Assembly: GCA_041650315.1 (NCBI GenBank)
Contig: JBAZLJ010000001.1
Location: forward strand, 280,259-344,258
Direction of reading: 5' to 3'
DNA: 64,000 nt
Source: Candidatus Woesearchaeota archaeon
GTDB taxonomy: Archaea; Nanobdellota; Nanobdellia; Woesearchaeales; JAGVYF01
Positions 1,319-61,490 of this stretch are shown here, piece after piece. Numbering within the stretch: the stretch's first letter is position 1; every line of letters begins with the position of its first letter. Both the position numbers and the translations under genes were made by a program. The notes below the pieces were generated by a model. That model had not been told where the DNA came from. It did no database searches and saw only the letters and a program-made list of their open reading frames with translations.

Positions 1319-2050
1319 TCAAAAGAATAATGTCATCAATACCGCGAGAATAATCATATTGCCAAAGTCTGCGATTGATGTTGTGATAGGTATCAAGAAG
1401 TTGTTAGGGTCTTCTTCATTCTGGAATAGTATTAATCCGCCTATAACTGATACTAAGAATAAAATTGTTATCAACACTCCTGTATCTATGAGCGCAATCA
1501 TCATGATCTTTATGCTGTATTCAAGGTTCATGCCATGGCCGGAATAATCCGATATCAATAATGCAAGCCCTCCGCTCATGGCTGCAGTAATCATCGATAT
1601 CAAGAACATCTGCAGGAACATTTTAACAAGGCCCTTTCTCCAAAATTCAGAATCTACTTTTTTCTGATGCAGCAATGTAGAGAATCTTGAAGAGATGACT
1701 GTTCCGTAGCTTCCGATCATGTTGTTCAAAGTTGGGAACATGATGACCAACGGCATTATCTCCATGAACAATACTTTTATTTCTTCTAATGCAAGTCCAC
1801 CAAGAGAGCTCAATAGGCAAGCAAATGCTAATATACCTATACTTTCCATGATTATGACTTTGATTATATGCGAATGAGGGCCATATTCCTTAATGTAGAA
1901 TAATGTTTTTTTAGAAATGTTATATTTGGTGTGGACTTTGTTCAGGATAGGGTGGTGCTTATGTCTTTTTATCTTAGTCACATTAAGAATATGTTTCTGG
2001 AAAAGCCTTTTCTTTTCGTAGTTCCAAAGATGATTATAGTATTCTTTCAT
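1319..2050 (-). CDS. MgtE/SLC41-type divalent cation transporter membrane domain protein (no cytosolic N-domain/CBS domains)
   Basis: C-terminal helix carries the MgtE signature EDPNNFLIPITTSIADFGN (D-P-[DN]-N...P..T...D..G). Five or more TM helices. Confidence 0.55.
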   Translation of the reverse strand: MKEYYNHLWNYEKKRLFQKHILNVTKIKRHKHHPILNKVHTKYNISKKTLFYIKEYGPHSHIIKVIIMESIGILAFACLLSSLGGLALEEIKVLFMEIMPLVIMFPTLNNMIGSYGTVISSRFSTLLHQKKVDSEFWRKGLVKMFLQMFLISMITAAMSGGLALLISDYSGHGMNLEYSIKIMMIALIDTGVLITILFLVSVIGGLILFQNEEDPNNFLIPITTSIADFGNMIILAVLMTLFF

Positions 2051-2051
2051 T

Positions 2052-2594
2052 TTATAAGATTAATAATGCGACCAATAATGATAGTATGCCCACCACATCG
2101 CCAACTGCTGTTATAAACGGCCCTATTATGTTGTTAGGGTCATGGCCTTTCTTGAAAAGATATAATATAGATACGAGCGTTAATGGAATTTCGATACCAT
2201 TCGATATGATTCCGGCTATCAATGGTATGATTATGATTGTGGGATAGTATAATCCCATCAAGTAATAATTGAATGTGAATGCTATCAATCCTAGCATAAT
2301 AGATACTAAGATTCCTAGGAGGAATGAGGCTATAATATTTCCTTTGATTATCTTGGTCTTCATTCGGTTAGGTTTTATTATATGCAGGAATAGTCCCGAA
2401 GTTATTCTTGATGAGAAAGACCCAGCTATGTTGTTGCGCATTTCCAAGAAACCTGGAATCATTATGAGCATGCCAGGGATTATAAGAAGATTATCTTCAT
2501 ATATGGCTAATATAGTGCCAGCTATAATTCCGCCTATTATGCTGAACATCTGAGTGCCTAATATTTCAGTGAAATCTTTATCAAAAAATGCCAT
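2052..2594 (-). CDS. MgtE/SLC41-type divalent cation transporter membrane domain protein (paralog of the gene immediately downstream)
   Basis: GHDPNNIIGPFITAVGDVVGI signature in the last helix. Polytopic. Only a 1-bp gap to the neighbouring MgtE-TM gene. Confidence 0.55.
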   Translation of the reverse strand: MAFFDKDFTEILGTQMFSIIGGIIAGTILAIYEDNLLIIPGMLIMIPGFLEMRNNIAGSFSSRITSGLFLHIIKPNRMKTKIIKGNIIASFLLGILVSIMLGLIAFTFNYYLMGLYYPTIIIIPLIAGIISNGIEIPLTLVSILYLFKKGHDPNNIIGPFITAVGDVVGILSLLVALLIL

Positions 2595-2749
2595 CTGTAA
2601 ATATACTGAATTCTATAATATATTAATGTTTTGAATATGCATATTGATTTTATTGATTACAAATATTTATATATTGAAACTGCCTGAATTTAGATGTATT
2701 AATAACATAATATAACATAATATATTATAATTATAGGGTGTGATAGAAT

Positions 2750-3100
2750 ATGCCAAAAACAATAATGGTTGTTGATGATGAGCCGGATATCCGCGCTACA
2801 GTAAAAACAGTTCTTGAGAAGAATGGTTTCAAAGTCATTACCGCAGTAAATGGCGATGATTGCCTTGATAAGCTGAAGAAAGAGAAACCTGATCTGATAC
2901 TTCTTGACATAATGATGCCGGGGACTCCTGTCAAAGAGATTGTGCCTAAGATTAAGGGCAAAATCGCATATCTGACTGTTGTCAGAGTGACTGAAGCGGA
3001 GAAAGAGCAACTTTTGAAAAATAAGAATATAGTAGATTTCATACAGAAGCCTTTCGATATCAAAGACTTAGTGAAAAGAGTGACTAAATTAACTTCATGA
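2750..3100 (+). CDS. Stand-alone response regulator receiver (CheY-like REC) domain protein
   Basis: MVVDDEPDIR...LILLDIMMPG...K. Conserved acidic pocket (DD), phospho-acceptor Asp in LLDIMMP, and conserved Lys. 116 aa. Confidence 0.85.
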   Translation: MPKTIMVVDDEPDIRATVKTVLEKNGFKVITAVNGDDCLDKLKKEKPDLILLDIMMPGTPVKEIVPKIKGKIAYLTVVRVTEAEKEQLLKNKNIVDFIQKPFDIKDLVKRVTKLTS

Positions 3101-3639
3101 GATTGGTTGAAATGGATATTACTAAAGAATTGAAGGACAATCAGGTTGTGCTTTTGCTAGTTGAGGGATTGGAGTACAATGATCTTTCTTTGAAAGTGGC
3201 TAAAGAACTTTTCGGCAAGAAAGTGTGCTATGTGACTCTGAACAAGACGTGCCCTTCGATTATCGAGAACTTTTCGAAAGCGAATATAAAAACTAAGGGT
3301 GTGACGTTTGTTGATGCAATTTCCAAAACTATTACCGGCAGGCCTAAGGCAGTTGACTCTTGCATGTATCTCAGTTCGCCAGGAGCATTGACTGAGTTGT
3401 CAATAGCAATCACTGAATTCATAAGGGAAGGATATGATTATATCATCTTTGATTCATTGACTAATTTGCTGATATACCAGGGCAAAGGGCCTGTCGCTAA
3501 ATTCGTCGCTAATCTGATCACTAAGATAAAAGCCAGCAAGACTCGCGCTGTGTTTTATGCACTTAAAGTCGATCAGCATCAAGAGCTTATACAGGAAGCG
3601 TCCATGTTTGTAGATAAAGTTGTGGATGCGAGCAAATAA
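3097..3639 (+). CDS. KaiC/RecA-fold (COG0467-like) protein with degenerate Walker A
   Basis: Start overlaps the REC gene stop (ATGA). The layout VVLLLVEGLEYNDL...DYIIFDSLTNLL resembles the KaiC/RadA-like core, but the GxxxxGK[ST] P-loop is replaced by EGLEYNDL. Family call is by pattern only. Confidence 0.4.
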   Translation: MRLVEMDITKELKDNQVVLLLVEGLEYNDLSLKVAKELFGKKVCYVTLNKTCPSIIENFSKANIKTKGVTFVDAISKTITGRPKAVDSCMYLSSPGALTELSIAITEFIREGYDYIIFDSLTNLLIYQGKGPVAKFVANLITKIKASKTRAVFYALKVDQHQELIQEASMFVDKVVDASK

Positions 3640-3691
3640 TCTCAATCATATCAGTATCGGGAAAGATTTTGTTTCCCATAATCAGTTTAAC

Positions 3692-5866
3692 ATGAAAGAG
3701 CAACCGAAAAAAGAGGGAGTTGATTCAAGTAGGTCTTTTTCTAGATTTTATTTCAGCAAATTGAATATTAAATTATTCATGATAGCTTTCATGTTTTTAA
3801 TTCTCGCAATATCTTCTTTTGGGATAGTCATCTATTATGTGGTCATTGATTCATTGAGTTTTCAGATACAATCTGAATTAGAATTGGCGGCCACTTTGAC
3901 TTCCAATCATGTAATAACCTATTTCGATGAAAAGACTGAGCTTATCAAGCTGATAACCAGTAGAACGCAGTTGAGGCGGGATTTGAATAATTATATTTCT
4001 GCTCCGAATCAGGATTTATACAATGAGATTGTGCTAAAACTTAAGGATTCTAAAGGGTCGATTGAGGAAATACAAAATCTTTGCTTCATCAATATGGGAG
4101 GCATTGTAGATGCCTGCAGTGATAATAGTATCACCGGAACTGATTTTTCTCAAGAAAGATTTTTTTCACAAGGCAAAATTTCAGAAGGCAGTTATTTCTT
4201 TAAAAATTCAGGCAATTGGAATATTGTGATTTCCGGTCCGATATATGAAAATAATCAGATATTGGGCGTCGTAATAGTAGTGTATGGTTTGCAAGAGCTT
4301 GGTGATATCATCACAGAAAGAGCTGGATTAGGGGAGACTGGTGAAGTATTGATTGCATTCAATGATAATAATGGGCAGACCATATATCCTTTGCCAAGGC
4401 GTTTTGAGAATGATGCGGTATCTATGAATTTTGTGGGATTACCGATGCAAGCTGCTCTAAATAAAGAATCTACTTTTTTTAAGAAAACCTATGATTACAG
4501 GGATGTGCAGGTGATTGCGGCTACTAAATATATTGACAGCGTTAAATTAGGATTGGTATCAAAAATAGATTATGCTGAAGCCATTCTGCCGGTACGTGAC
4601 AGACTTATTATTCTTTTCGTCAGAGTTAGCTTAATCTTAGTTCTGGTCTTGACATTGCTTTTCTTTTTAATATCTCTACGTATAATTAAACCTATACATG
4701 AGTTGATATCCGCTGCTGAAAGGTTGAAGAACAATGATTTCAAAGTTCATTTGAATATCAAGACTGATGATGAGCTTGAGCAGTTAGCGGGGACTTTTAA
4801 TACTACTGCAGAGATACTTGATAATCTTGAGAATGAAAGAAAACAGATTGATAAGGCGAAGACTGAGTTCTTGTCAATCACGTCGCATGAATTGCGAAGT
4901 CCGATGACGCCGATGAGGGCGCAATTGCAAATGGTGCTCGGTGATTATTTCGGGAAACTTAATGCTGAACAGAGGAATGCGCTTGAGATTGTGCTGAACA
5001 ATACTGAACGTCTTGACAAGATAATCGTCGATTTCCTTGAGATCTCGCGTATTGAGGCTGCTCGTTTGAAATTCAATTTCGTGAAAGCTGATTTAACTAA
5101 AATGATAAATCTTGTTGTTGAAGAAGTTAAATCATTTATGCCTGAGAAGAAACTTCGGATTGAGTTGGATGTCGGCAGATTGCCCATTATTGAATGCGAT
5201 CCTGACCGTGTATCACAAGTACTGCGTAATCTTTTGACAAATTCTATTAAATTCTCGCATCAGAACGGGCGTGTTTTAGTGTCTGTGAAGCACACAGATG
5301 GAATGATTCAGTTTAGCGTGAAAGATGAGGGTGTAGGCATATCCGAGAAAGATCAGAAGCATCTTTTCGAGCCGTTCTTCCAAGTCGAGAATATGTATCA
5401 GCATAAATCCGGCGGTACTGGTCTAGGGCTTGCTATCTGTAAGGGCATTGTAGAGAGTCAGAACGGGAGGATTTGGCTTGTTTCTCAAGAAGGCAAAGGA
5501 ACTGTTTTTAATTTCACTGTGCCGTTGAAACCAGTGCATGAGATTAAGGCCATAAAGATTTTGTTCTCGAACGGACAGAAGACGGATGAGCTCGTCAAAA
5601 ATTTATTTATTGAATATATCGGGCCATTAGGTGAACGTGAATTCGAGGAATTGCAGAAAAGCAAAGGGATTACTTATGAATCTGTGCATCAATATATATC
5701 GGATTTAGCCAAGAAAGGAATACTTATGAAAGAGAATTCCGAAGAATTTAAAAGCAAGATTGCTATGGTATTTGGCAGAGAAGAAAAAGAGGTTAAGAAA
5801 TTGAAAAAGAAAGAGAGATTGACTTTGCCTCAACAGGAGGTAGCTGAGTTTTTCAGCAAAAACTAA
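3692..5866 (+). CDS. Sensor histidine kinase: N-terminal TM, extracytoplasmic Cache-like sensor, second TM, HAMP, HisKA (H-box ITSHELRSP), HATPase_c (GGTGLGLAICKGIVE), plus an extra C-terminal ~115 aa module
   Basis: H-box SHELRSPMTPM. N-box LRNLLTNSIKFS. G-boxes DEGVGI and GGTGLGL. Two TM segments flank a ~270 aa periplasmic-type domain. The ORF is open from 3620 (MWMRANN...) but ATG 3692 (MKEQPKKEG) avoids overlap with the upstream gene. Confidence 0.85.
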   Translation: MKEQPKKEGVDSSRSFSRFYFSKLNIKLFMIAFMFLILAISSFGIVIYYVVIDSLSFQIQSELELAATLTSNHVITYFDEKTELIKLITSRTQLRRDLNNYISAPNQDLYNEIVLKLKDSKGSIEEIQNLCFINMGGIVDACSDNSITGTDFSQERFFSQGKISEGSYFFKNSGNWNIVISGPIYENNQILGVVIVVYGLQELGDIITERAGLGETGEVLIAFNDNNGQTIYPLPRRFENDAVSMNFVGLPMQAALNKESTFFKKTYDYRDVQVIAATKYIDSVKLGLVSKIDYAEAILPVRDRLIILFVRVSLILVLVLTLLFFLISLRIIKPIHELISAAERLKNNDFKVHLNIKTDDELEQLAGTFNTTAEILDNLENERKQIDKAKTEFLSITSHELRSPMTPMRAQLQMVLGDYFGKLNAEQRNALEIVLNNTERLDKIIVDFLEISRIEAARLKFNFVKADLTKMINLVVEEVKSFMPEKKLRIELDVGRLPIIECDPDRVSQVLRNLLTNSIKFSHQNGRVLVSVKHTDGMIQFSVKDEGVGISEKDQKHLFEPFFQVENMYQHKSGGTGLGLAICKGIVESQNGRIWLVSQEGKGTVFNFTVPLKPVHEIKAIKILFSNGQKTDELVKNLFIEYIGPLGEREFEELQKSKGITYESVHQYISDLAKKGILMKENSEEFKSKIAMVFGREEKEVKKLKKKERLTLPQQEVAEFFSKN

Positions 5867-6618
5867 TGGCAGAATTATCATTATATTTAGCTAATCTAAC
5901 AGGTATATTCTCTATAATCACAGCTATACTAGGGATACGCCTTATTCTGGCTATTCTTTCTAAGAAGAAGAGTCCTATCCAAAGAACAATTCATATCATA
6001 TTTGGATTATTAGTGATAAGTTTTATATCATGGGCTTCAGCTGAGACGATATGGGCAATTTTATCTATTATGGGAATAGATCCGGCATTCGGAATTGCCG
6101 AATACTTTTATTTATTCGGTTATTTATGCTCCGCAATAGCTTTAATCTATTTCGCTAAAATAAATCTTTCCCATTCAGCTTTTGAAGAGATTTTCTCAGT
6201 TTCTGTAATCGGTGGCTTGTTCATATTATTCGCGTTATTCTCAGTAAACTTTGTAGTCTCGGGTTATGTGGAGAAATTGCCGGCATTAGAGATGTTTCTA
6301 AGCTATTTTTATCCAATAGGTAGCGCTATTTTATTTGCGCTTTCTTCAACTGTGTATATTTTCTTTCGTAAGATAAAAATTATTGAGATACCATTGATTC
6401 TCATAGCTGCGGGATACATATTCAATTTTGTAGGGGATCTTGGATATACATATTATTCATTGAGAGAAATTTATGGCACAATAGGCATAATTTCAGATAT
6501 TTGTTTTATGATTCAATATCTTTTAGTAGCTAAGGCATTCTGCTTATTAATATCATCATTATCAAATGGAAATTGCGGATTCAATATAAAATCAAAGACT
6601 AAAAATGAAACAGAATGA
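5866..6618 (+). CDS. Hypothetical 7-TM integral membrane protein (possible sensor-associated membrane module)
   Basis: 250 aa and almost entirely hydrophobic helices. Start overlaps the kinase stop; its own stop overlaps the next gene's start. Confidence 0.4.
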   Translation: MAELSLYLANLTGIFSIITAILGIRLILAILSKKKSPIQRTIHIIFGLLVISFISWASAETIWAILSIMGIDPAFGIAEYFYLFGYLCSAIALIYFAKINLSHSAFEEIFSVSVIGGLFILFALFSVNFVVSGYVEKLPALEMFLSYFYPIGSAILFALSSTVYIFFRKIKIIEIPLILIAAGYIFNFVGDLGYTYYSLREIYGTIGIISDICFMIQYLLVAKAFCLLISSLSNGNCGFNIKSKTKNETE

Positions 6619-57466: not shown

Positions 57467-57676
57467 CTATTCATTCTTATCATTAATTACAAATACGACT
57501 ACATTCTTCCCGATATATCTTTTTAGGAAAGGTATTACTGCGCCATTTCCACTTTTCTTGACTGATAATGATTCTCCTTTAGCATCAGTTGTGAACATTC
57601 CTAGTGCATGGTCTATCCTAATCTTGCTGCTCATCAAAACATCTAGATTGTATCCTTGAGTTATTTTTTCTTTCAT
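57467..57676 (-). CDS. Small AbrB/MazE-like (swapped-hairpin) domain protein
   Basis: LSVKKSGNGAVIPFLKRYIGKNVVVFVIND resembles the SpoVT/AbrB core. Low certainty. Confidence 0.3.
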   Translation of the reverse strand: MKEKITQGYNLDVLMSSKIRIDHALGMFTTDAKGESLSVKKSGNGAVIPFLKRYIGKNVVVFVINDKNE

Positions 57677-57695: not shown

Positions 57696-57989
57696 TTATC
57701 TCATCTTAAAGTCGACATCGTATTCCACTTCATACAATATTTCTTTCTGAACAAGCTTGATCTTCAACTCATCCATGCAGTCGAATAAGTCTTTGAATAC
57801 TAAATTCAGGACCATAATCACTGCTTCAATAGATTCCTCAACTTGTCCTTCATAATAGCCTGTCTTTTTGGAAAGAGTGAAACCCTTCCAGTATTTCTTA
57901 AGTACATCGACAATCTTTTGCTTGTATTCGTCATCTATAACTTTAGTCTTATTGTCTGCGCCTATGTAGAGTCTTATCTTTATCCCCAT
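57696..57989 (-). CDS. Hypothetical protein
   Basis: 97 aa. No motif recognised. Confidence 0.3.
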   Translation of the reverse strand: MGIKIRLYIGADNKTKVIDDEYKQKIVDVLKKYWKGFTLSKKTGYYEGQVEESIEAVIMVLNLVFKDLFDCMDELKIKLVQKEILYEVEYDVDFKMR

Positions 57990-58090: not shown

Positions 58091-58714
58091 TTAGAATTCA
58101 ATACCACGTCGTGCATACACACCGTCGTTATATGGGTGCTTCTCTTCGTTCATTACTGTGACTAAATCGGCTGCATCTTTGAGCTGTTGTGGGGCGTTTC
58201 TGCCGGTGAGTATTAGTTCGGTGTTCTCGGGCTTGGTTTGGATTAGTTCAAGCACGTCGTCCAAGGGGATTAATCCTTTTGCTACGCAGTTGTTGATTTC
58301 GTCGAGGAATATAAGATTGTAATCGCCGGATTTGATGATTTCTTTCGCTTTAGAAAACGCGGTTCTGACGAACTCTTTTTCTTCAACGTCTGATGTGAAA
58401 CAGGATCTGCAATCACCGCAGTCTTCTTCAGTACGCACATGGAATCTGTGGAGATACGGCTCATTGAATTCCTTGAGTTTGATCTGCACTTTCTCTTTCA
58501 GGCAAGGCTTTCCGTGCTGTTCTATGTGTATCAAGTCGTTCATGTAGTTCTGGATAGCTACGAACTCGCCAGTGTAATGTCCGCCTTTCAAGAACTGGAT
58601 TATCTTCACTTTCAGGTTCTGGCCCGCTGCTCTAAGCGCCATGCCGAAAGCTGTTGTAGACTTGCCTTTACCATTGCCTGTGTAAATGTGGACCAGACCT
58701 AGATTCTTTGGCAT
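58091..58714 (-). CDS. cobA: Cob(I)yrinic acid a,c-diamide / cob(I)alamin adenosyltransferase (CobA/BtuR/CobO family) with a Cys-rich insert
   Basis: IYTGNGKGKSTTAFGMALRAAG...IIQFLKG...GE...FLDE...ILTGR matches BtuR block by block. Insert C...CGDCRSC lies between blocks. Confidence 0.8.
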   Translation of the reverse strand: MPKNLGLVHIYTGNGKGKSTTAFGMALRAAGQNLKVKIIQFLKGGHYTGEFVAIQNYMNDLIHIEQHGKPCLKEKVQIKLKEFNEPYLHRFHVRTEEDCGDCRSCFTSDVEEKEFVRTAFSKAKEIIKSGDYNLIFLDEINNCVAKGLIPLDDVLELIQTKPENTELILTGRNAPQQLKDAADLVTVMNEEKHPYNDGVYARRGIEF

Positions 58715-58721
58715 TATCTCC

Positions 58722-60860
58722 TCATGCTATCGAACATTTCGAATATCCGCAGCTTGGACATGTCGAACATCCTTCTGAAAAGTACAATTTGGATTTGCAA
58801 TTCGGACAGAGATCGTCTTTCTTCTGGAGTTTTGTCGTGTCCAGATTGATCACTTGCTCAGATCTGCTTCTGTCACGATAAATAGTTACTCCTTTGCAAC
58901 CGAGCTTGTATGCCATTAGATAAGTGTTCTCGACATCTTTAGTAGTAGCATCGGATCTGAAATTGACTGTCTTCGATACTGCATTGTCAGTATATTTCTG
59001 GAATGCGGCCTGTATCTTGATGTGCCATTCTGGGTCTATATCATGCGCAACGACAAACACTTTTTTCACATCATCTGGTACTTCAGGCATATGATGCACT
59101 GTGCCTGACAAAGCAATCTTCTCCATCAAGTCTGTAGAATAGAATCCTTTATGCTTAGCAGCTCTTTCAAAATATTTGTTGACATAGACCAATTTCTGAG
59201 TATCCATGACATGTTTCGCGAAAGATAATGCGAATAAAGGTTCGATGCCATTTGAAGCATCTGCGATCATGCCGATTGTGCCTGTTGGAGCGATTGTTGT
59301 TCGTGTCGCGTTCCTCATCTTACTGCTTTTGTAGACGCTTCTTGCGATGTTCGGGAACGAGCCTCTTTTCTCAGCAAGTTCGATAGATGCTTTATCAGCT
59401 TCTTCTTTAATGAATTTCATTACTTTTTCGGCAGTTTTCATGCCTTCTTCTGAATTGTATGGGATATTGAGCTCAAGCAGCATATCTGCGAAACCCATTA
59501 TGCCAAGGCCAATCTTCCTGTTGCCTTTTGTCATCTGCTCTATTTGCGGCAATGGATATTTGTTCATATCAATTACATTGTCCAGGAAATGCACGCCTAG
59601 ATGCACATATCTTTTCAGATTGTCGAAATCAATCTCGTCATTATGCACAAACTTAGCCAGATTTATGGACCCTAGATTGCATGATTCGAATGGAAGCAAT
59701 GGCTGTTCTCCGCAAGGGTTTGTGCTTTCAATCTCTCCGATTTCCGGAGTAGGATTGTCTCTGTTCATCCTGTCGATGAATACAATACCTGGTTCTCCAT
59801 TCTTCCAGGCGTTAGTTACAATCAGGTTGAATACATCTTTGGCTCTTAATCTTTCTACCACGTCTTTCGTCTTAGGATTGATGAGATCGTATTCTTTGTC
59901 TTGGATTACTGCCTGCATGAACACTTCAGTCAATGCAACTGAGATATTGAAATTGTTCAACGCGCCTTCTTTCTCTTTGCAGTTAATGAATTCAAGAATG
60001 TCTGGATGATCCACGCGAAGTATACCCATGTTAGCGCCACGCCTTTTGCCGCCTTGTTTTATTACTTCAGTGGCGATGTTATATACTTTCATGAATGATA
60101 TCGGGCCGGATGATACTCCATGCGTTGATTTAACCATATCGTTTTTTGGTCTGAGTCTTGTGAATGAGAATCCTGTGCCGCCGCCGGATTTGTGGATCAT
60201 GGCTGCGTATTTCACGCCGTCAAATATTTCTGAAATAGAATCGCCGACAGGAAGCACGAAGCATGCTGATAATTGCTGCAGTTCGTTGCCGGCATTCATC
60301 AGAGTAGGACTATTAGGCAAGAATTTCAAAGTGGACATCGCTTCATAGAATTCGTGGGCAGTCTTGCTCAGGTCTGCATCTTTGTTGTACAATTTATCAG
60401 CCTGCGCGATATTGTTCGCGACTCTCTCGAACATTAATCTTGGCGATTCGATAATCTTGCCATCTTCATCTTTTCTCAAATATCTTTCTACAAGCACTTT
60501 AAGGCTATTATATGATATATGCAATTCGTCTTCCATACCTAGGAGCTTGACTTTCGCTTCACGTTCTTCTTTTCTTTTTTGTCTATAAAGGATATATGCT
60601 TTCGCAGTCTTAGCATGGCCTTCTTCCATAAGCACTTTTTCCACTATATCTTGTATCTCTTCAACTTTTGGGATAGTATGGCCGTCAAATTTCTTTTCTA
60701 TCAGATCTGCAACGATTTCAGCCAATTGGTCTGCTCTTTTTCTGTCTTTTCCGCCGACAGATAATGCGGCTTTGAAAATAGCGTCCGCAATCTTTTGTTT
60801 ATTGAATTCAACTATAGAACCATTGCGTTTCTGGATTTTTTTAAGCGTGATGTTCGTCAT
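58722..60860 (-). CDS. nrdJ: Adenosylcobalamin-dependent (class II) ribonucleotide reductase with N-terminal ATP-cone and C-terminal Zn-ribbon
   Basis: ATP-cone KRNGSIVEFNKQKIADAI. Catalytic-core Cys/Asn/Glu blocks (SACFV, NPCGEQPL). C-terminal CPNCKSKL...CSTCPSCG. 712 aa. Confidence 0.85.
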   Translation of the reverse strand: MTNITLKKIQKRNGSIVEFNKQKIADAIFKAALSVGGKDRKRADQLAEIVADLIEKKFDGHTIPKVEEIQDIVEKVLMEEGHAKTAKAYILYRQKRKEEREAKVKLLGMEDELHISYNSLKVLVERYLRKDEDGKIIESPRLMFERVANNIAQADKLYNKDADLSKTAHEFYEAMSTLKFLPNSPTLMNAGNELQQLSACFVLPVGDSISEIFDGVKYAAMIHKSGGGTGFSFTRLRPKNDMVKSTHGVSSGPISFMKVYNIATEVIKQGGKRRGANMGILRVDHPDILEFINCKEKEGALNNFNISVALTEVFMQAVIQDKEYDLINPKTKDVVERLRAKDVFNLIVTNAWKNGEPGIVFIDRMNRDNPTPEIGEIESTNPCGEQPLLPFESCNLGSINLAKFVHNDEIDFDNLKRYVHLGVHFLDNVIDMNKYPLPQIEQMTKGNRKIGLGIMGFADMLLELNIPYNSEEGMKTAEKVMKFIKEEADKASIELAEKRGSFPNIARSVYKSSKMRNATRTTIAPTGTIGMIADASNGIEPLFALSFAKHVMDTQKLVYVNKYFERAAKHKGFYSTDLMEKIALSGTVHHMPEVPDDVKKVFVVAHDIDPEWHIKIQAAFQKYTDNAVSKTVNFRSDATTKDVENTYLMAYKLGCKGVTIYRDRSRSEQVINLDTTKLQKKDDLCPNCKSKLYFSEGCSTCPSCGYSKCSIA

Positions 60861-60963: not shown

Positions 60964-61170
60964 CTATTCTTTGATGATGTCGATGCAGTTAACTGGGCAG
61001 ACTTCTTTAGCTTCCTGATTCTTGCCGATATTGTCTAGCACGAGTTTTTTTGGTTTCGCTTTATACATTCCGCCTTCTTCTGCAAGCTCCCAATTCTCTG
61101 GACACTGGACTGTGCATGCTCCGCAACCAATGCACTCATCTTTTTTGAAAATGATTTTGTATTTAGTCAT
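60964..61170 (-). CDS. 4Fe-4S ferredoxin
   Basis: CIGCGACTVQCP ... C...CPVNC gives two cluster-binding Cys groups. 68 aa. Confidence 0.75.
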   Translation of the reverse strand: MTKYKIIFKKDECIGCGACTVQCPENWELAEEGGMYKAKPKKLVLDNIGKNQEAKEVCPVNCIDIIKE

Positions 61171-61490
61171 TCTTCTTCCTCATCTTCGCTGTCTTCAGAG
61201 TCTGAATCCTCATCGTATTCTTTTTTATCGGATTCATGCTCAATAAGTTCGTTTATCTCGTCAACCATCTCTTTGATCTCTTCGCCGTTCATACCATGAC
61301 CCATACAGCCTTGCTCTATTGTCTCTGTGTATGCGACATGGCAACCAATGCAGTGTAGTCCGTACTTGAGCATGACCATTGCTGCGCCGGGATGCTTTTC
61401 CAGCACTGCGCCGAAAGTCATTTCTTTTGTTACTGGCTTAGGTTTTTCTGGTTCTTTTGCAGATGGTTTCTTGTTCATAGGGTATAGCAA
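61167..61490 (-). CDS. DUF1858-like (hybrid-cluster-protein-associated redox disulfide) protein with an acidic tail
   Basis: MTFGAVLEKHPGAAMVMLKYGLHCIGCHVAYTETIEQG fits the DUF1858 pattern with CxxC. C-terminal DEDSDSEDSEDEEEE. Confidence 0.5.
   Translation of the reverse strand: MLYPMNKKPSAKEPEKPKPVTKEMTFGAVLEKHPGAAMVMLKYGLHCIGCHVAYTETIEQGCMGHGMNGEEIKEMVDEINELIEHESDKKEYDEDSDSEDSEDEEEE

Follow-up and report, generated by a model that had tools for sequence, protein, structure and literature searches.

A two-gene operon of Candidatus Woesearchaeota archaeon encoding NrdJ, a class II (adenosylcobalamin-dependent) ribonucleotide reductase (RNR), and CobA, a CobA/BtuR-type corrinoid adenosyltransferase, was analyzed within a 64-kb window (the whole stretch of DNA analyzed, 64,000 nucleotides at positions 280,259 to 344,258 of contig JBAZLJ010000001.1, assembly GCA_041650315.1; coordinates below are those of the window). 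In this CobA, the loop that bears Phe91 and Trp93 in Salmonella CobA is replaced by an insert with four cysteines, which most of the closest homologs share. We put at roughly 0.5 the probability that CobA contains an electron relay running from ferredoxin to a [4Fe-4S] cluster and on to Co(II).

The gene pair and the cysteine insert of CobA

Both genes lie on the minus strand, where a first-pass annotation made from the DNA letters had placed them: nrdJ (712 amino acids) at 58722..60860 and cobA (207 amino acids) at 58091..58714. They are separated by GGAGATA (58715..58721, minus strand), exactly the 7 bp claimed, and the junction between nrdJ stop and cobA start reads TGA-GGAGATA-ATG, in which GGAG resembles a Shine-Dalgarno sequence. 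A 7-bp spacer containing such a motif implies that nrdJ and cobA form a co-transcribed two-gene operon, and their translation is probably coupled.

NrdJ was identified by Pfam domains and NCBIfam equivalogs. The ATP-cone, the allosteric activity domain (residues 8–98; 60567..60839, minus strand; PF03477, E = 4.1e-25), is followed by an all-alpha domain (residues 116–194) and the barrel (residues 198–661), the Pfam families being ATP-cone, Ribonuc_red_lgN and Ribonuc_red_lgC. Scores against two curated equivalogs for B12-dependent RNR exceeded the cut-offs (1016.6 bits versus 961 for PRK08665; 745.4 bits versus 400 for TIGR02504). The last 28 residues contain six cysteines (685, 688, 698, 701, 704 and 709; CxxC-x9-CxxCxxC-x4-C), translated as CPNC-x9-CSTCPSC-x4-C at residues 685–709 (58734..58808, minus strand), and a weak zinc-binding-domain match was obtained at residues 673–695 (Pfam). 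In sequence, this tail resembles the zinc-finger/redox tail that is reportedly present in most class II RNRs. Domains, equivalog scores and tail cysteines all agree with the earlier description of a class II RNR with ATP-cone, core and C-terminal cysteine ribbon.

CobA matched PF02572 over residues 6–207 (E = 4.5e-55, 186.9 bits against a cut-off of 25.7). The AlphaFold2 model had a predicted local distance difference test score (pLDDT) of 88.2, and its best Foldseek matches were the Salmonella CobA structures 1G64 and 4HUT (E ~ 3e-13), with template modeling (TM) scores on Salmonella CobA of 0.80–0.87, target-normalized. The P-loop GNGKGKST (residues 13–20; 58655..58678, minus strand) aligns to GNGKGKTT of 4HUT; G13, K16 and K18 never vary, and G15, G17 and T19 hardly vary, across alignments that included one of 80 sequences. 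In the 80-sequence alignment, core residues D138, E139, T170, G171, H193 and R202 are also invariant, and R172 and K192 nearly so. CobA falls slightly below the trusted cut-off of the NCBIfam cobA equivalog TIGR00708 (162.6 versus 167.75 bits) and below that of PRK05986 (166.7 versus 185 bits) because of the insert. By profile, core residues and fold, as the first-pass annotation had proposed, the protein is a genuine CobA/BtuR-fold enzyme with predicted adenosylation activity. It shares Pfam family, RecA-like P-loop fold and core residues with Salmonella enterica CobA and E. coli BtuR (1G5R, 1G64, 4HUT), and presumably the chemistry of Salmonella CobA, in which Co(I) attacks C5′ of ATP and triphosphate is released. 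Unlike Salmonella CobA, it lacks the N-terminal extension of about 25 residues, and it has the cysteine insert in place of the Phe91/Trp93 lid.

The insert was placed by alignments and the AlphaFold2 model at 58400..58504 (minus strand). Cysteines occur at CobA residues 71, 99, 102, 105 and 143, and the first four form the motif GKPC-x27-CGDCRSCF, that is, C71-x27-C99-x2-C102-x2-C105 followed by F106; the predicted C-x~30-CGDCRSC was near enough to this spacing. In pairwise and profile alignments, CobA residues 3–53 align to Salmonella CobA 25–75 and residues 108–207 to 97–196. Between these blocks, profile positions 54–107 (54 residues) stand for Salmonella CobA 76–96 (21 residues), giving a net gain of 33 residues, and the segment replaced is the loop bearing Phe91 and Trp93. 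When aligned using MAFFT, G90-F91-T92-W93 of E. coli BtuR falls at CobA G68...C71/L72, the insert comes next, and the helix after it resumes at about residue 110. Thus the GFTW lid loop of standard CobA is replaced by the cysteine insert, and the alignment with CobA/BtuR structures suggested in the first pass located the insert at a site where standard CobA has none. That the insert is an ordinary CobA loop was ruled out, since neither E. coli BtuR nor the CobAs of 170 amino acids have it.

A beta-hairpin was predicted within the insert, with strands at residues 74–78 and 90–94. Because C71 lies just before the hairpin and C99, C102 and C105 just after it, the four cysteines would, in the model, meet at the hairpin base. 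The phenylalanine that follows the third cysteine of CxxCxxC, F106, may be the counterpart of Phe91. In the 4HUT structure, with four- and five-coordinate cob(II)alamin, Phe91 and Trp93 cover the corrin from below, and both residues are reported to be critical for forming four-coordinate Co(II) in Salmonella CobA.

Conservation of the gene order and of the cysteines

To sample gene neighborhoods, GTDB was scanned with one genome per species, and 80 CobA loci were returned. The eight best loci were all from DPANN archaea (Woesearchaeota, Nanoarchaeota, Naiadarchaeum) and had nrdJ directly upstream on the same strand, whereas nrdJ was upstream in 0/72 of the remaining loci, which came from bacteria, Bathyarchaeia, Thermoplasmatota and methanogen lineages and included standard CobAs of about 170 amino acids. 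With the addition of contigs from exact protein look-ups, the count of cobA loci with nrdJ directly upstream rose to 14 of 14. A metagenome scan, in which the search pattern was a generic Walker-B and about 11 of 80 loci were informative, contributed nine further loci, again with nrdJ upstream in every case. The total for the archaeal loci of this CobA clade is therefore 23/23, with spacers mostly of 0–30 bp; compared with 0/72 among standard CobAs, this argues that the pairing is not due to chance, and it bears out the functional coupling proposed for the two genes. On one contig (that of protein P0103), the order is NrdR-NrdJ-CobA.

Several of these loci have further genes of nucleotide metabolism or cluster assembly. 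NrdR, usually regarded as a bacterial repressor of RNR genes, has relatives (Zn_ribbon_NrdR plus ATP-cone) encoded just upstream of nrdJ in L084 (1506-1955), in L085 (3197-3700) and on the P0103 contig; no NrdR was found in the 64-kb window. Two RNR genes occur around cobA in some relatives: L087 has NrdD-NrdJ-CobA (1925-5987), L094 and L095 have a second, weaker RNR-like open reading frame (ORF) upstream, and in L105 nrdJ-like genes flank cobA on both sides. The NrdJ of the related DPANN contig L084 (1968-5387) has 1139 amino acids, including an intein that bears a LAGLIDADG endonuclease domain. In L087 (7061-8696) and L085 (1-208), nrdJ-cobA has Fe-S assembly genes as neighbors (NifU_N and a cysteine desulfurase-like Aminotran_5), which may be a coincidence.

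The cysteines are also conserved. CxxCxxC preceded by a lone cysteine was found in 112 of the 120 closest CobA homologs, and in the 80-sequence alignment F106 is invariant, while conservation reaches at least 90% at C71, C99, C102, R103 and C105. Conservation in orthologs, proposed in the first pass as a check, was thus observed, and its extension across homologs of 45–50% identity ruled out lineage noise as the origin of the cysteines. Eight close homologs lack all four cysteines and keep a loop of intermediate length together with the phenylalanine.

A shorter form, C-x12-CxxCxxC-F, is present in other archaea (Altiarchaeota-like contigs, also nrdJ-linked) and in bacteria. When a search was seeded with one bacterial member, 115 of 117 homologs had the short-spacer motif, with phenylalanine next in 110 of the 115, and in many of them proline follows the first cysteine, as in ferredoxins. 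Carriers among cultured strict anaerobes include Halobacteroides halobius, Acetohalobium arabaticum, Orenia, Natroniella, Halonatronum, Sporohalobacter, Selenihalanaerobacter, Fuchsiella, Zhaonella and Phosphitispora, and Syntrophomonas CobA also bears the four-cysteine motif. All named carriers, including Halanaerobiales, Syntrophomonas, DPANN and Altiarchaeota, are strict anaerobes; the CobAs sampled from aerobic or facultative organisms (E. coli, Metabacillus, Alkalihalobacillus) retain the GFTW lid. Among the 150 best representatives of 50%-identity clusters, 12 had the motif.

In the CobAs of H. halobius, A. arabaticum, Orenia and Syntrophomonas, the motif occupies the same place as in the window CobA (G-x-x-C...CxxCxxC-F), but the spacer has 12 rather than 27 residues and lacks the hairpin. 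These proteins are annotated only as generic adenosyltransferases and are encoded in cbi operons, not beside nrdJ; the bacterial contexts seen were the B12 biosynthesis operons CbiA-CobA-CobS and CbiC-CbiA-CobA. Since bacterial short-spacer CobAs are found in such operons, the module is not tied to nrdJ, and a cysteine module special to the nrdJ operon was rejected. A rough neighbor-joining tree was built from the CobA core with the insert masked. Long-spacer DPANN forms grouped together (88 leaves, of which 83 were long-type and 5 were scored short), followed by the Cys-less nrdJ-linked forms and then by the archaeal short-spacer forms, with the bacterial short-spacer forms elsewhere, outside the archaeal clade. 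On this comparison of sequences, the four-cysteine module characterizes a subfamily of CobAs from anaerobes, and the DPANN form, with its added hairpin, is a derived version.

Proposed electron relay and other possible roles of the cysteine site

We propose that nrdJ-cobA would serve as a salvage-and-use module in this DPANN Woesearchaeote with a genome of about 1 Mb. The archaeon, which we infer does not synthesize corrinoid, would take it up ready-made, CobA would convert it to adenosylcobalamin, and NrdJ would use the adenosylcobalamin in deoxyribonucleotide synthesis. In CobA, the Phe91/Trp93-type loop would have been rebuilt as an excursion of about 33 residues, held at its base by the four cysteines and followed by the invariant F106. 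The cysteines would hold a [4Fe-4S] cluster adjacent to where the corrin binds; the cluster would receive one electron from a low-potential ferredoxin and hand it to Co(II), and the Co(I) so formed would attack C5′ of ATP. Cluster and ferredoxin together would replace the role that flavodoxin FldA has for Salmonella CobA.

Four observations favor the relay, to which we give about even odds. CxxCxxC with a remote cysteine, often Cys-Pro in the short forms, is the classic ligand pattern of [4Fe-4S] clusters. The named carriers are strict anaerobes, and the sampled aerobic and facultative CobAs keep GFTW. The site lies on the loop that determines how cobalt is coordinated and, through this, its reduction potential. 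A single-cluster [4Fe-4S] ferredoxin of 68 amino acids (CxxCxxCxxxCP...CPxxC; Fer4_13, E = 1.6e-9) is encoded two genes upstream of cobA (60964..61170, minus strand), and four other loci (L002, L006, L084 and L092) likewise have a ferredoxin gene within 2 kb of nrdJ-cobA, making 5 of the first 14 loci with the window; L099, from the metagenome scan, is one further, weak case. The window ferredoxin is thereby a candidate electron donor to CobA, where Salmonella CobA uses flavodoxin. An enzyme supplied in this way would not be "self-reducing," the term used in the first-pass annotation, which was overstated: a single cluster relays electrons that an external donor must still provide.

A number of points weigh against the relay. 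Metal binding by the CobA cysteines is predicted from the pattern of the sequence, and CxxCxxC with a fourth cysteine can also accommodate structural zinc. No Fer4 or other metal-domain model matched CobA, PF02572 being the sole Pfam match at E <= 0.01. The insert was not found in any solved structure, either among the structural matches of CobA or when the 54 residues were searched on their own against the PDB, which gave chance matches (E > 0.6), and its own model confidence was only moderate (pLDDT 60–74). Ferredoxin genes adjoin the operon in a minority of loci, about a quarter to a third, numbers too small for a correlation with the cysteine type of CobA. Cys-less CobA relatives are also linked to nrdJ (L007, L097, L100, L105 and the contig of P0103), so the cysteine site must be dispensable for adenosylation as such. 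The salvage half of the proposal is subject to a similar reservation: cob, cbi and btu genes were absent from the approximately 56 kb of the window with gene calls and Pfam labels, and about 94% of the 1-Mb genome lies outside the window. Within it, CbiA-domain matches were obtained only on SRP54 and a ParA/Mrp-like ATPase. This absence fits the earlier suggestion that the organism scavenges corrinoids, and fits an archaeon that obtains corrinoid from outside and has retained just the last activation step, on behalf of a single client enzyme.

Among the alternatives, a structural Zn(II) that merely stiffens the enlarged lid loop and hairpin, with Co(II) reduced directly by an outside protein or free reduced carrier as in ordinary CobA, is a real but somewhat doubtful possibility. 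Four ligands made of CxxCxxC and one more cysteine are a known structural-zinc arrangement, as in horse liver alcohol dehydrogenase, whose structural site is made up of C97, C100, C103 and C111, and the predicted base of a hairpin is a place where a cross-brace makes sense. Both the activity expected of Cys-less relatives in the same genomic context and the lack of Fe-S domain matches on CobA would be explained. A zinc brace does not, however, require that the named carriers be only strict anaerobes, and cysteines at two-residue spacing with a distant cysteine, often Cys-Pro, are more typical of cubane clusters. Nor would it account for a site positioned exactly on the loop that governs the coordination and redox potential of cobalt. 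This last feature would suit a single Fe(II) or Zn(II) that helps generate four-coordinate Co(II) without electron transfer, in the manner of EutT, since the insert replaces the loop with that role in Salmonella CobA and EutT sets a precedent for a metal-dependent corrinoid adenosyltransferase (2020 tetrapyrrole biosynthesis review), although the folds of CobA and EutT are unrelated. Neither Pfam nor NCBIfam gave a match of CobA to the EutT family, and the EutT motif HX11CCX2C differs from that of CobA. Moreover, the invariant F106 after the third cysteine of CxxCxxC could still act as the lid, and the Cys-less relatives keep that phenylalanine. We regard a mononuclear site as quite improbable. 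Metal-free, redox-sensitive disulfides that switch CobA according to the redox state of the cell are more improbable still: a CxxC redox-disulfide protein (DUF1858) is encoded beside the operon in several loci, but nothing else supports switching, and four strictly conserved cysteines arranged around CxxCxxC suit metal binding far better.

The electron relay can be extended to a broader proposal, which taken as a whole we consider unlikely. CobA would then unite cob(II)alamin reductase and adenosyltransferase in one self-contained enzyme driven by ferredoxin, with a built-in [4Fe-4S] cluster under the corrin. It would represent a fourth mechanistic class among corrinoid adenosyltransferases, widespread among anaerobes and, in DPANN, acting as a dedicated loader and repair partner of NrdJ. 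Electrons for reducing cobalt, and also for re-reducing the C-terminal cysteines of NrdJ, would come from ferredoxin and DUF1858, with its CxxC.

Neighboring genes, related systems and significance

The ferredoxin gene and a gene for a DUF1858 protein form a pair directly upstream of nrdJ, the DUF1858 gene overlapping the ferredoxin start by 4 bp. The DUF1858 protein (107 amino acids; 61167..61490, minus strand) has a CIGC motif and an acidic tail and matched PF08984 (E = 1.1e-16) and TIGR03980, "hybrid-cluster-protein-associated redox disulfide" (75 bits against a cut-off of 45). DUF1858 recurs beside nrdJ-cobA in L006, L007, L084, L087 and L092, and a possible function is to reduce the cysteine tail of NrdJ in conjunction with ferredoxin. 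Of the first 14 loci, 7 encode ferredoxin, DUF1858 or both no more than 2 kb from nrdJ-cobA, among them the window (60964-61490, minus strand), L006 (11543-12017), L084 (6059-6694), L092 (3258-3753), L007 (7016-7231) and L087 (6871-7146). Published work lists DUF1858 among selenoprotein and redox families.

Downstream of cobA are two small co-directional ORFs on the minus strand, 57696-57989 (97 amino acids) and 57467-57676 (69 amino acids). The gap of 101 bp between cobA and the first of them is AT-rich and contains a TATA-like stretch and the ribosome site GGGGTGA. The only family match of these ORFs was a weak one to DUF2080, and the 82%-identical relative L092 shows no conservation of them. 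No tRNA genes (ARAGORN) and no Rfam families at gathering score, cobalamin riboswitch included, were found in the 64-kb window.

Few reductants in biology are as strong as Co(I), and producing it is the hard step of coenzyme B12 synthesis. To our knowledge, the natural electron source of CobA-type enzymes is known only for Salmonella, where it is flavodoxin, and is essentially unknown in archaea and strict anaerobes. In anaerobes, the Fe-S proteins RamA and RACo carry out the reduction of Co(II) to Co(I); they differ from CobA in having unrelated ATPase folds and in reactivating the corrinoid proteins of methyltransferases without adenosyl transfer. Such reductive activases may be the source of the analogy, drawn in the first pass, with methanogen CobAs carrying ferredoxin-like domains. 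No such methanogen CobA was found: the CobAs sampled from methanogen lineages (L016, L062 and L077) are standard and lack the motif. A methanogen CobA-ferredoxin fusion was rejected as a precedent, since the longer relatives of CobA that were examined proved to be tandem CobAs or to have MeaB, CbiJ or CbiX as fusion partner.

Proteins P0182, P0266, P0197 and P0122 exemplify these natural fusions and the tandem double CobAs, which have about 340 amino acids. The MeaB-CobA fusion (P0182) is another adenosyltransferase tied to one client enzyme, MeaB being the G-protein chaperone of methylmalonyl-CoA mutase.

Adenosyltransferases encoded with the B12 enzyme that they serve are also known from the PduO/PduS and MMAB/MeaB systems; in the operon described here, the client is a ribonucleotide reductase. 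PduO belongs to another adenosyltransferase family, and its Fe-S reductase is a separate protein, whereas the putative cluster of the window CobA would be within the enzyme itself. PduS reportedly supplies electrons via [4Fe-4S] clusters (PMC2982820). EutT, the adenosyltransferase of the ethanolamine operon, reportedly needs a Cys-bound metal and is likewise encoded with its client B12 enzyme, but the metal is a mononuclear Fe(II) or Zn(II), no cluster has been proposed, and the metal of CobA is only putative. Linkage to nrdJ also sets the window cobA apart from that of Salmonella, as it neither stands alone nor lies in a cob operon.

The 2020 review describes three types of adenosyltransferase and does not mention an Fe-S CobA. 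Together with the full-text literature searched, it contained nothing relevant on an Fe-S CobA, on nrdJ with an adenosyltransferase or on DPANN with cobalamin; within that literature, the four-cysteine insert of CobA is undescribed.

The coupling of nrdJ and cobA in one operon is neat but unsurprising, and the part of enzymological interest is the conserved four-cysteine lid. A four-cysteine site on the loop that tunes cobalt suggests a concrete and testable answer to the question of the electron source, for which the cultured carriers Halobacteroides halobius and Acetohalobium arabaticum are practical material. For the organism, the strict pairing of nrdJ with cobA suggests that a genome-reduced, host-dependent archaeon appears to keep only the last step of B12 activation, wired to the synthesis of DNA precursors, and the retention of this step bears on what such archaea must obtain from their partners.

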